Positions 42,934-46,310 of a DNA stretch of 58,281 bases are shown piece by piece. The notes beneath the pieces were generated by a model. The model ran no database searches. It saw only the letters and a list, made by a program, of their open reading frames with translations, and had not been told where the DNA came from. Each line of letters begins with the position of its first letter. Position 1 is the stretch's first letter. The translations under genes and the position numbers were made by a program. The stretch lies in assembly GCA_964611275.1 (NCBI GenBank), contig CAZSZS010000037.1, positions 1 through 58,281 on the forward strand. The letters run 5' to 3'. The stretch is from an uncultured Eubacteriales bacterium (GTDB lineage: Bacteria; Acidobacteriota; Aminicenantia; Aminicenantales; Aminicenantaceae).

Positions 42934-43263
42934 CTATTTTTCAAATCCGAAGAGACCGTCAATAGGAACGGATATCATTTTGGCGATACCTGTTTTCTTA
43001 TGATAGCCGGTGACATCCTTCAGAACTTCGTCTATATCTATGATCATATCTTTATCTGTGACCATCAAAATGGTCTTGTTGGTGGGACTGCTTCCGGCGA
43101 AAAAATCTCTCAATCCGGCAAAAATGGGGATGTCATGACTGACAATATGGCCCATTCCCACAGAATCAAGAATCGTAGCGCCGGGTACTCCGATTTCCAG
43201 GAAAGCGGAAAGAAGGTCGTCCAGATATTCGATCTTGTTAAGGAAAATGATGATGAGCTTCAT
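42934..43263 (-). CDS. PII-like (GlnB fold) regulatory protein
   Basis: Start moved to MKLIIIFLNK with an AGAGGG RBS. Pattern GVPGATILDSVGMG..KTILMV..G...S.P. Confidence 0.75.
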   Translation of the reverse strand: MKLIIIFLNKIEYLDDLLSAFLEIGVPGATILDSVGMGHIVSHDIPIFAGLRDFFAGSSPTNKTILMVTDKDMIIDIDEVLKDVTGYHKKTGIAKMISVPIDGLFGFEK

Positions 43264-43279
43264 CTTAAAGTTCCCTCTC

Positions 43280-43747
43280 TTAACTGAAATGTCTGTTTTC
43301 ATACTCTGTGAAGACGTCTATGACATTCTGGCTGTTTTTGCATGTCATTAATTTTTTTCTGAGTTTCCTATCATGTAAGATGCGGGAGAGTCTTGCCAGA
43401 AAAGTGATCTGGGTGTTGACTTTTTTTTCAGGGCACAGAAGAAGAAATACCAGGCGGACCGGTTTTCCATCCAGTGCCTCAAAGCCCACACTTTTTTCTG
43501 TGATTCCGAAAGCAAAATACACCTGCTGGCTTTTTTTGGACCTTGCATGAGGGATGGCCACATGGTTTCCGATGGCAGTGGTCTCGATCTTTTCCCTGTT
43601 AATGAGATTTTGAATAGCCTCTTCCTTATCAATCTCAGGATATTTGTCTGTTATAAGGCCTAAGAGTTCCTCTATGATTTCCTGTTTTTTTTCTTTGAGA
43701 AGAGGGATCTTTATGCAGTCTTTATCCAAATATTGAGAAATACGCAT
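43280..43747 (-). CDS. Stand-alone PTS EIIA (fructose/nitrogen type)
   Basis: REKIETTAIGNHVAIPHAR (phospho-His), F.ALDGKPVRLVFLL, LARLSRIL. Confidence 0.92.
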   Translation of the reverse strand: MRISQYLDKDCIKIPLLKEKKQEIIEELLGLITDKYPEIDKEEAIQNLINREKIETTAIGNHVAIPHARSKKSQQVYFAFGITEKSVGFEALDGKPVRLVFLLLCPEKKVNTQITFLARLSRILHDRKLRKKLMTCKNSQNVIDVFTEYENRHFS

Positions 43748-45075
43748 TACGAACTCCTTTGGACATGGGTCTCGCCTACTTTTTTCAAACCGTATTTAAA
43801 GGCGATGGGTCCTATAATCTGGTTCATAATAATGGCTGCCACTAATATGGTCTGGACAGAAGGGCCTATTTCAGGAAACCGCCGGGCGACTTCTGTGAGC
43901 AGCCCTAAACTGACTCCAGCTTGGGTAATAAAACCCAGCCACACATTTTTATATATTTTTGGCTTGTTTTTTGCAAGTCTGCCGCTCACAGAGGAACCGG
44001 CATAGATGAAGATAAGACGGACTAAGAAAACGACCAATCCCAGAAGCCACCCGGTGCGGAGCACGTTCAAGTTCATTGATGCCCCGGTTATGGCAAAAAA
44101 GGCAATATAGATAGGGAGAGAGATCCGGTCCATTCGTTCCAGAAAGTTGTCTCCATGTTTTGAAAAGTTCTGCACAGTAAAGCCGGCTGCCATGCAGATG
44201 AGAAGAGGTTCCAGTTCCAGGCGGATGTCAAAGACCCGGTGCAGATAATCTCCAAGCAGGTGTGAAAATTCGATCACAATAAATCCCGTAGCAATGATAA
44301 CCACCGGAAATTCCACATGGACTTTTTCTATGAGAAAAACAATGAGTTTTCCCAATAGGAAGCCGAGCAGAAAAGCAACGGTGATTTTAAAAAGGAGGGA
44401 AAGTACCAGCAGTAAATTCAATCCGCCTTTGCCCGCAATAAAGACTTGAACGACAGAGATAACCACGGCAAACAGTATGATAATAAAGACATCCATGGCC
44501 ACGGATACGCTGAGGACAATATCCGTATAGCGTCCTTTGGCTTTTGTCTCACTGATAATGGCAATGGCCGAAGAAGGCGAGCGGGCGACGGCAATGGTTC
44601 CGAATATGGCTGAGACAGCCAGTCTTAAGGTCAAGCTAAAATCATCCATGAAGGGCATTGCGCCGGACAGTAAAAAGACGACGAGGGTCGTTCCGCAAAG
44701 GACCACCACCGTCACTCCGGATACATAGTAAACGATGGATTTAAGGATTTTTCGCAGATTTGATATTCGCAGTTCTCCTCCTGCGCAAAAGGCAATAAAC
44801 GCAAGAGCTAGTTTGTTTATAAAACTGAGGCTGTTCACTTCCGAAAGAGAGTATAAGTTCAGAAAAAAAGGACCCATGAACAGACCTGCCAGAATATACC
44901 CCACGATTCGAGGGAGACCGATTCTCTCTAAAAGAAAGCCAAAACAATAGGCGGCCAGAAGGATGAGGCCTAGAATAAGAGCAGGGCATTTTTTCTGGAA
45001 GTCGCCTAAATTAAAATGAATGATCAGCATCACAGTAGTGATGATAAGAATGAGACCTAATATTCTGTTTGTCAT
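43747..45075 (-). CDS. Cation:proton antiporter (CPA, Na_H_Exchanger family) subunit
   Basis: GLPRIVGYILAGLFMGP, FCAGGEL, ARSPS, AMD, FFAITGA, QAGVSLGL. Confidence 0.88.
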   Translation of the reverse strand: MTNRILGLILIITTVMLIIHFNLGDFQKKCPALILGLILLAAYCFGFLLERIGLPRIVGYILAGLFMGPFFLNLYSLSEVNSLSFINKLALAFIAFCAGGELRISNLRKILKSIVYYVSGVTVVVLCGTTLVVFLLSGAMPFMDDFSLTLRLAVSAIFGTIAVARSPSSAIAIISETKAKGRYTDIVLSVSVAMDVFIIILFAVVISVVQVFIAGKGGLNLLLVLSLLFKITVAFLLGFLLGKLIVFLIEKVHVEFPVVIIATGFIVIEFSHLLGDYLHRVFDIRLELEPLLICMAAGFTVQNFSKHGDNFLERMDRISLPIYIAFFAITGASMNLNVLRTGWLLGLVVFLVRLIFIYAGSSVSGRLAKNKPKIYKNVWLGFITQAGVSLGLLTEVARRFPEIGPSVQTILVAAIIMNQIIGPIAFKYGLKKVGETHVQRSS

Positions 45076-46310
45076 TTGTTTTTTTTGGTTATATCTGGCC
45101 GATTTCTGAAATCAATGGGGACAGGTTGTTCAAGCAGGGAAAGGATAAGCTTTGGGCTTATGAATTCGTTTATGATCATGGATATAACGACCACTGTGAC
45201 CAAATAGTCCGACAATGAAGGATAAAAAATCGAGAAGCTGATAATAATGGCTACGGCAAAGCCCCCTTCTGATAAAAGCCCCAGCCCTGTGCTCCATGGG
45301 ACATGGAAGTCAAATTTAAAGGAACGTGTGGCGGCAAATACGCCCATAAGTTTTGCCAGCAGTCTGGATAGAAAGTAAAATCCTGTGATGATGAGAATAA
45401 AGTTGAAATCAAGTTTCCAGCTGGCACCAATGATCACGAGTATTATGATGTAGATAGATTTTTCAGAATGCACCATGATTTCAAGAGCTCTCAATCTGTG
45501 TCTGCAGAAATTAGCAATGATCAATCCGGATATGAATCCAATAAGAAGGGGAGAATTGTTGGTTTTCATGGCCAGCCCTCCGCCGAATAAGACTGACCCT
45601 AGGATGAGTACGATAAATTCCTGCTGGGAGAATCTGACTTTGCTTAAGATGATAAATATGAGAGCTGTGATCATTCCTATGGTCAGGGCCAGAAGAAGCC
45701 ACTTTAAAGAAGCCGTTAAGTCGAATTTTGTGCTTCCTGATAGAGGAAAGACAATAAAAGTCAGTGAAAAGAGAGCCAGTGCAAAAATACCGTCTATGCC
45801 TGCAATGTAGTTGAGGAGAGAGAACAATCTGGGATTTTTGAACCTATAGTTATTGCATACGATTGCAAGGGCGGATTGAGCCGTACACACTGAAGCACTG
45901 CCTAAAGCAAAAGAAAGAATGAGAACGGTTCTGACCGGAAGGGTGGAAAATGTCTTGAATGAGAAAAAAATGGCCGGAGTCACAACCAGAAAAGTAACAA
46001 AGGCTTGGATGGCTGAAATGGAGAAAAAGAGTCTTGGGAGATTCTTGATGCTTTTAAAGTCAAACTGGAGCCCGAAGAGAAATCCGATCCATGATAGACC
46101 AAAAAAAAGGAAAGGCTCTAAATTGATCAGGATTTTCGGGTCGATCATATTAAGCCCCATTTTGCCTAAAAGTATTCCCATGAATATGTACTCGGTACCT
46201 GTGAATATGATATTTCTGAAACCAAGGGGGAGCTTCCTGTTGAGAAAAGTAAGACGGGAGCCGATAAGGGCAATGATGGTGATGGTGATAATAGTGATGA
46301 GCAGTTTCAT
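45072..46310 (-). CDS. Cation:proton antiporter-like membrane protein
   Basis: YIFMGILLG, WIGFLFGLQFD, ID in the TM5 region, GLGLLSEGGFAVAI. Start moved to MKLLITII because the longer 46472 ORF runs through a repeat element. Confidence 0.8.
   Translation of the reverse strand: MKLLITIITITIIALIGSRLTFLNRKLPLGFRNIIFTGTEYIFMGILLGKMGLNMIDPKILINLEPFLFFGLSWIGFLFGLQFDFKSIKNLPRLFFSISAIQAFVTFLVVTPAIFFSFKTFSTLPVRTVLILSFALGSASVCTAQSALAIVCNNYRFKNPRLFSLLNYIAGIDGIFALALFSLTFIVFPLSGSTKFDLTASLKWLLLALTIGMITALIFIILSKVRFSQQEFIVLILGSVLFGGGLAMKTNNSPLLIGFISGLIIANFCRHRLRALEIMVHSEKSIYIIILVIIGASWKLDFNFILIITGFYFLSRLLAKLMGVFAATRSFKFDFHVPWSTGLGLLSEGGFAVAIIISFSIFYPSLSDYLVTVVVISMIINEFISPKLILSLLEQPVPIDFRNRPDITKKNK

Follow-up and report, generated by a model that had tools for sequence, protein, structure and literature searches.

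Two paralogous CPA-fold exchangers encoded with a stand-alone EIIA and a PII-like protein: a conserved operon for a candidate regulated cation/proton exchanger

Introduction

Why would a bacterium encode two different exchangers of the CPA (cation/proton antiporter) superfamily one after the other, followed by a stand-alone EIIA of the phosphotransferase system (PTS) and a small protein of the PII type? The question is raised by positions 42934–46310 of contig CAZSZS010000037.1 (assembly GCA_964611275.1), the whole analysed stretch of which, 58,281 nucleotides (nt) long, is called the window in this text. The four genes are named here CPA_A, CPA_B, EIIA and PII-like. We propose, as a moderately probable reading, that they form one operon for a regulated cation/proton exchanger, in which two old CPA paralogues make up the membrane part and a joint EIIA/PII-like unit acts as its switch. 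The genes are as follows.

CPA_A: 45072..46310, minus strand, bare-membrane CPA-fold protein of 412 amino acids (aa), the diverged paralogue (PF00999, 39.3 bits).
CPA_B: 43747..45075, minus strand, bare-membrane CPA-fold protein of 442 aa, the conservative paralogue (PF00999, 83.6 bits).
EIIA: 43280..43747, minus strand, stand-alone PTS_EIIA_2 protein of 155 aa (PF00359, 114 bits).
PII-like: 42934..43263, minus strand, protein of 109 aa with a predicted PII fold, of a distinct subfamily (PF00543, 17.6 bits, below the cut-off of 25).

Organization and conservation of the operon

The order CPA_A–CPA_B–EIIA–PII-like lies entirely on the minus strand. The listing of open reading frames (ORFs) and the reading of the sequence give a 4-nt overlap at 45072–45075 between the two CPA genes, a 1-nt overlap at 43747 between CPA_B and EIIA, and a 16-nt gap at 43264–43279 before the PII-like gene. 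For CPA_A and the PII-like gene, the short starts at 46310 and 43263 were preferred over those of the longest ORFs, because alignments of homologues back them: the ATG at 46310 agrees with CPA_A homologues, every one of which starts with MKLL, and the start at 43263 is backed by alignments of 27 and 69 homologues.

An earlier note on this DNA had described four co-directional genes with these overlaps and this gap, two antiporters devoid of a KTN/RCK domain, an EIIA that keeps the phospho-histidine motif AIPHAR, and no EIIB or EIIC; every one of these details proved right. Pfam gives PF00999 (Na_H_Exchanger; cut-off 26.2) as the sole domain of both CPA proteins, over residues 40–380 of CPA_A and 41–420 of CPA_B, with neither KTN/RCK nor any other cytoplasmic domain, and both proteins end at most 30 aa after the last helix. 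The EIIA motif reads VAIPHAR, and neither EIIB nor EIIC is encoded within the operon. No equivalog-level name was found in NCBIfam for any of the four proteins.

The four window proteins were compared by tblastn with 80 fetched loci, whose organism labels are those of the records, some of them probably placeholders. The order A-B-EIIA-PII or EIIA-PII-A-B was found in about 45 of the 80 loci, which belong to many phyla. The former occurs in records of Aminicenantes, Desulfobacterota, SAR324, Myxococcota, Nitrospirales, Planctomycetia, KSB1 and Acidobacteriota, and the permuted order is found in a separate group of loci. Since the same gene order was found again in dozens of distant genomes, the arrangement is, by this comparison, far beyond chance. 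The earlier note had held that its proposal would fail if each antiporter worked alone and the four genes did not occur together in other genomes; their co-occurrence turned out to be widespread.

With respect to the labels, loci L001, L002, L007 and L010 and other binchicken records of metagenome-assembled genomes are titled "uncultured Eubacteriales bacterium", and their operon proteins are 82–96% identical to those of Aminicenantes records. These titles are probably placeholders, unfit for taxonomy.

The two CPA paralogues

CPA_A and CPA_B are homologous over their full length, with 20% identity and an hhalign probability of 99.9, and are, as judged by their sequences, old paralogues. In a quick maximum-likelihood tree, one branch with a support of 100 parts A from B; the sub-clades of the two sides are mirrored, and the A branches are longer. 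The single-CPA relative of locus L064 and the third CPA of the window genome both fall on the B side. The two genes are nearly always adjacent, A then B, the stop of A and the start of B overlapping in 30 of 40 loci and lying within 30 nt in 37 of the 40. Some SAR324 operons hold A alone, and a strong B copy is found elsewhere in the genome. In their adjacency, translational coupling, mirrored phylogenies and the retention of B elsewhere when the operon has A alone, the paralogues behave as an obligate pair.

No match to CPA_A was found by sequence in the PDB. Its AlphaFold2 model (predicted local distance difference test, pLDDT, 85) matches NHA2, NapA, PaNhaP, MjNhaP1 and KefC over the full length, with TM-scores of 0.6–0.68. 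The model presents 13 transmembrane (TM) segments with discontinuous crossing helices, which are broken at residues 141–145 and 346–349; it is a complete CPA fold, with conserved polar residues at both helix breaks. CPA_B can be aligned by sequence to NapA and MjNhaP1, which places D195 opposite NapA D157 and MjNhaP1 D161, and R353, invariant in the family, opposite MjNhaP1 R320.

An eight-position motif has been described for CPA proteins, with Asn (CPA1) or Asp (CPA2) at position 6, the essential Asp on TM helix (TMH) V at position 7, and Arg or Lys on TMH X at position 8 (PMC9408914). Position 7 is occupied by D195 in 32/32 CPA_B sequences and by D173 in 29/34 CPA_A sequences, that of the window included; the Asp of CPA_A was lost in the remaining five, namely L010, a close relative, and all members of the permuted-order clade, and CPA_B is intact there. 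Position 8 corresponds to R316 of CPA_A, aligned to CPA_B R353 by hhalign, and is Arg or Lys in 33 of 34 sequences. At position 6, where Asn or Asp is expected, CPA_B has M194 (M/T/K/I/L in the family) and CPA_A has I172 (I/V in the family), so that the pairs read M194-D195 and I172-D173; the single-CPA relative L064 alone carries the canonical DD motif. The TM-IV break reads CTAQS in CPA_A and ARSPSS, with a near-conserved Arg, in CPA_B, whose conserved C-terminal tail ends in KVGET. In addition, Glu and Gln are swapped reciprocally between the paralogues at three conserved sites, E101/Q385/Q419 in CPA_B being Q82/E348/E382 in CPA_A.

These features point to an asymmetric A/B heterodimer, in which B would carry out transport and A would be the diverging partner. 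The possibly heteromeric antiporter put forward in the earlier note gains from the behaviour of the two CPAs as an obligate pair; the formation of the heteromer itself is something that we infer. The presence of a complete CPA fold in both proteins, with the essential Asp and the TM-X Arg kept in both window copies, is also what would be expected if A and B each formed a homodimeric exchanger of its own, the two differing in ion or pH optimum and being co-transcribed and co-regulated by EIIA and the PII-like protein. The occurrence of single-CPA modules (L064) and the lack of an A–B fusion among the fusion proteins searched agree with this alternative. However, it does not account well for the fixed A-then-B order with its stop/start overlap in three quarters of the loci, for the mirrored A and B trees, or for the B copy kept elsewhere where the operon has A alone; and in two separate lineages the A gene has outlived its Asp, which would be odd for an autonomous exchanger. 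We regard independent homodimers as rather unlikely, though deserving of weight.

Two long proteins came up beside these families. P0123 and P0124, of ~1500 aa, have a Na_H_Exchanger domain and are distantly similar to CPA_A (~80 bits). An open frame of 1061 aa around the CPA_B copy of a high-GC Gemmatimonadaceae genome was also considered as a longer protein and was set aside, as no extra domain was found in it.

EIIA, the PTS and the EIIA–PII unit

The EIIA protein scored 83.7 bits with the PtsN model TIGR01419, below its cut-off of 138.7. Its phospho-acceptor His67, in the motif AIPHAR, is kept in 53 of 54 aligned homologues, and R51 and E52 are invariant. The window assembly (3.16 Mb, 89.8% complete) carries a regulatory PTS cluster on contig C172, in the order lptB-rpoN-hpf-ptsN-hprK-rapZ-EIIA(Man)-HPr-EI, where EI has 588 aa. 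The rpoN-linked ptsN of this cluster is a gene separate from the operon EIIA, and a search for EIIC (PF02378 and PF03609) found none anywhere in the 89.8%-complete assembly. Because a separate rpoN-linked ptsN is present and no EIIC was found, the operon EIIA is a dedicated PtsN paralogue, and the PTS of this organism appears to be purely regulatory. Control by PTS phosphorylation, another element of the earlier proposal, is thus plausible, given the conserved His, the presence of EI and HPr and the EIIC search.

The genome encodes three EIIA_2 proteins: the rpoN-linked PtsN, the operon EIIA and a fusion with a zinc ribbon. The last one, of 274 aa, bears a C-terminal C4 zinc ribbon (Zn_ribbon_9) and is located on contig C40 (L087:5928-6752).

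The EIIA and PII-like genes are adjacent in 62 loci. They are also found joined in one polypeptide, in either order: PII-EIIA in protein P0121 and EIIA-PII in P0177, P0225 and P0254. In L051 and L068, two spirochaete loci, an MnhE gene comes directly after the pair, which has the order PII-EIIA there, and in L051 the pair heads a full MnhE-F-G-B-C-D operon for an Mrp antiporter. Since the two genes are adjacent, translationally coupled, fused in both orders and paired even in the absence of antiporters, they can be taken as one unit, and they look like a portable antiporter regulator. For the same reasons, the "dual" control of the earlier note, with PTS phosphorylation and nucleotides acting independently, is less likely than control by one joint EIIA–PII unit. 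Two further candidate fusions were discarded: that of CPA_B with EIIA in L013 was an artefact of an extended ORF that ran through a stop codon, and P0122, in which a PII-like protein carries an ADH-like tail, seems to be an assembly chimera.

The association with the CPA genes extends beyond the loci where all four are linked. Among 28 genomes with an unlinked EIIA–PII pair, roughly two-thirds have an adjacent A-then-B tandem elsewhere, and a sample of 201 genomes of the phylum yielded the PII-like protein in 16, all of which (16/16) also have CPA_B. These figures bear on the possibility that EIIA and PII-like serve metabolic signalling in general and have their main targets elsewhere, such as in nitrogen or NAD metabolism, the antiporter genes being one neighbour among several and not a direct binding target. 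Many loci indeed place the pair beside genes for carbamoyl-phosphate synthase, NadE, His-tRNA synthetase, Ser/Thr kinases or a DinB-type polymerase; some genomes have the pair without CPA_A/B; and, as no canonical PII was found in the assembly, the PII-like protein could have wider duties. Nevertheless, a general role would leave aside the repeated, translationally coupled linkage to the CPA pair and to Mrp, antiporters of two unrelated classes, as well as the constant company of CPA_B in the phylum sample. Moreover, the spirochaete genomes without CPA_A/B include the Mrp-linked L051, and L044 and L055 share its PII-EIIA order. We therefore consider this explanation improbable.

The PII-like protein

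The PII-like protein stays under the PF00543 threshold, and a profile of 69 homologues matches canonical PII weakly, with the PII of A. aeolicus (2eg1) at an E-value of 1.5e-4. The AlphaFold2 model (pLDDT 87) has the order E-H-E-(loop 37–59)-E-H-E, a double beta-alpha-beta, ferredoxin-like fold whose long T-loop joins strands 2 and 3, and the top Foldseek matches are GlnZ, GlnK/GlnK3, GlnB and the PII of S. elongatus (E ~1e-6 to 1e-5). The glycines of the nucleoside pocket and a counterpart of Lys K58 are kept: in the alignment, G28-A29-T30, G36-M37-G38 and K63 correspond to canonical G27-T29, G35-G37 and K58. Conservation in the family is highest in the segment of the long T-loop that follows GMG; the loop has the pattern GMGHI.S..IPIFAGLRD.F.GSSP.NK.

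The ATP/ADP site of PII proteins includes the B-loop sequence GDGK and C-terminal Arg residues. In the PII-like protein the B-loop reads KTGIAKM (PGxG in distant members); the canonical GDGK is not recognisable and there is no conserved C-terminal Arg, so that canonical ATP binding is doubtful. The nucleotide control put forward in the earlier note thus finds no support in the degenerate ATP-binding loop. As a DAC-domain diadenylate cyclase is encoded in the genome (contig C40:31205-31564), cyclic di-AMP may be named as a possible ligand, and nothing more.

A genome-wide search with PF00543 returned no canonical PII at E<=0.01 in the 89.8%-complete assembly, and the PII-like protein may be the sole member of the PII superfamily in this genome. 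The family is large: it comprises 611 clusters at 50% identity (E<=1e-10), and at least 556 loci of species-representative genomes encode a relative, the closest relatives being named Candidatus Aminicenantes.

Proposed mechanism

In the mechanism that we propose, CPA_B would be the conservative, transport-competent protomer, and CPA_A its faster-evolving partner, most likely in an A/B heterodimer. EI and HPr of the same genome would set the phosphorylation of EIIA at His67, which would thus report on phosphoenolpyruvate/pyruvate and on the energy state. The dedicated EIIA paralogue and the PII-fold protein would act jointly as one cytoplasmic switch. Their complex would bind the bare membrane exchanger and alter its activity, probably through the conserved T-loop, standing in for the RCK/CorC domains that are fused to other CPA antiporters. 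If PtsN and YcgO of E. coli are taken as a guide, the unphosphorylated form would be expected to inhibit the efflux of a cation, probably K+ or Na+.

Several observations weigh against this proposal. CPA exchangers are dimeric and PII proteins trimeric, which makes the stoichiometry of a putative direct complex uncertain; and in YcgO the EIIA docks on a CorC domain, which is absent in CPA_A and CPA_B. The search for A–B fusion proteins, a weak negative, gave only two unrelated proteins of ~1500 aa. Single-CPA versions of the module exist (L064, with its canonical DD), and because of them a homodimer can suffice. Tandems of A-like and B genes also occur without the PII-like protein, in about eight genomes of the phylum, and around half of the EIIA–PII loci lie among housekeeping genes and not among transporters; in more distant relatives, too, the pair keeps together amid unrelated housekeeping genes. 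Finally, the lack of Asn or Asp at position 6 in both subunits (M194 and I172) makes the predicted ion, and even the transport mode, uncertain.

This last point leads to the alternative that A and B are CPA-fold transporters or channels for another substrate, with the x-D motif and the TM-IV Arg serving another chemistry, which is very improbable: position 6 (M/T/K in B, I/V in A), the ARSPSS break of CPA_B with its near-conserved Arg, the modest Pfam scores and the want of an NCBIfam equivalog at cut-off would fit it, but the CPA motif keeps its Asp7 and Arg8, and the presence of the same regulators on Mrp cation/proton antiporters argues for a shared ion/pH function.

Comparison with known systems

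The closest studied analogue of the proposed system, and the only experimentally defined precedent, is found in E. coli, where unphosphorylated PtsN binds the CorC domain of the CPA1 K+/H+ antiporter YcgO/CvrA and inhibits YcgO (Patidar et al. 2024, PMC11808508; Srivastava et al. 2026, bioRxiv 10.64898/2026.08.14.744764). The operon shares with it an EIIA_2-type protein, a regulatory EI–HPr relay, the lack of a sugar EIIC in the search and a CPA-fold exchanger as putative target, which would be controlled according to the phosphorylation state of the EIIA His. The differences are as follows. YcgO has fused CorC/RCK docking domains, whereas CPA_A and CPA_B are bare membrane domains; the operon EIIA is dedicated and encoded with its putative target, and is not the rpoN-linked PtsN; a PII-fold protein always accompanies it, in some cases as its fusion partner; and the exchanger is encoded here by two paralogous genes.

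The PII side recalls SbtB–SbtA and GlnK–AmtB, in which a PII-family protein gates the transporter of the neighbouring gene: here, too, a small PII-fold protein is encoded in the operon of a transporter, and its most conserved surface is a long T-loop. However, the targets in those systems are trimeric, matching the PII trimer, whereas CPA exchangers are dimers. Unlike SbtB and GlnK, the PII-like protein has no recognisable canonical nucleotide-binding B-loop or C-terminal Arg residues, its T-loop sequence is unrelated, and its EIIA partner is obligatory.

The combination of a CPA-fold exchanger with a cytoplasmic regulatory protein or domain is also known from KefC–KefF, KhtU–KhtT and other CPA2 exchangers, such control being the one proposed for the operon. 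In contrast with KefC–KefF and KhtU–KhtT, there is neither an RCK/KTN domain nor a KefF-type partner, the regulators come from the PTS and PII families, and the membrane part consists of two diverged paralogues and not of a homodimer. With NapA, MjNhaP1 and PaNhaP, the proteins share the 13-TM NhaA-type fold, the two broken crossing helices, the Asp of TMH V and the Arg of TMH X. They depart from these in having Met (B) or Ile (A) for Asn/Asp at position 6, no Glu at position 5, a TM-IV break ARSP (B) or CTAQ (A), and the reciprocal Glu/Gln swaps between subunits.

A search of the literature on PII-like proteins with EIIA, PtsN, CPA2 or antiporters, including a 2026 review of the nitrogen-related PTS, found no description of this module. 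Its parts belong to the known superfamilies CPA, EIIA_2 and PII. What would be new is the two-paralogue exchanger together with an EIIA/PII-like pair that is obligatory and is found on Mrp as well.

Upstream region and neighbouring genes

The operon is preceded by an enlarged intergenic region and flanked by genes for sugar use, which are unrelated to it.

Intergenic region 5' of the operon: 46311..46835, minus strand, 525 nt, enlarged in the alignment with seven close relatives.
Upstream neighbours: 46836-51765, plus strand, GH127 beta-L-arabinofuranosidase, FGGY kinase and L-rhamnose isomerase.
Downstream neighbours: 37199-42905, amidohydrolase (convergent), BNR/sortilin-repeat protein and aldose 1-epimerase.

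In the alignment of seven close relatives, the gap between CPA_A and the divergent GH127 gene, 525 nt in the window, has only ~110 nt in L004, L005, L007 and L010. These short gaps share a TTGAAAAACAAAA box, the window copy of which is located at ~46835-46845, at the far end of the gap. The segment ~46330-46450 was found again upstream of CPA_A in L002 and L003, and the remainder has no counterpart. The additional sequence probably represents small repeat elements that were inserted between CPA_A and the ancestral promoter region, as this alignment suggests. Rfam gave no match over 40000-49000 at E<=1, and scans for promoters and terminators stayed at or below the expectation from shuffled sequence. 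A conserved leader or riboswitch for the operon was considered and dropped, since there was no Rfam match and the long region is not conserved in close relatives that have the same operon.

Around the EIIA–PII pair in other loci, some neighbours recur. A gene for glutamine-dependent NAD synthetase (NadE, with CN_hydrolase and NAD_synthase domains; checked with Pfam in L061 only) is divergent beside the pair at L061:5598-7382, and divergent ORFs of similar size stand beside it in L059, L070 and L078. This arrangement recalls the linkage of glnB and nadE, which is already known (PMC7196632). In L049 (8361-9827) and L067 (5007-6461), which are Calditrichia-like loci, the gene directly 3' of the pair encodes a Ser/Thr protein kinase that has a PEGA domain, and a His-tRNA synthetase gene is downstream of it in L060 and L074.

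Significance

To our knowledge, the regulation of a cation/proton antiporter by a PTS protein is known from one case, that of PtsN and YcgO in E. coli. Gating of transporters by PII-type proteins is known for ammonium and bicarbonate carriers. The operon would unite these two forms of control, PTS control of antiporters and PII-type gating, in one widespread module, and would add to them a conserved exchanger made of two paralogues, whose ion site is asymmetric.

In its boldest form, which we advance tentatively, the proposal would describe the first heteromeric CPA-type exchanger, formed by a catalytic B and by a degenerating A that serves as scaffold or docking subunit. The EIIA/PII-like gate would be detachable, a universal plug-in for CPA pairs and for Mrp, and would tie ion and pH homeostasis to the state of the PTS across many uncultivated phyla. 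If the proposal is true, the module would represent a general mechanism that couples energy and carbon status to the balance of K+, Na+ and pH in bacteria in which no genes for sugar-PTS permeases were found. It would also provide structural work with the first natural heterodimeric CPA exchanger, and it would give a function to a large orphan branch of the PII superfamily.

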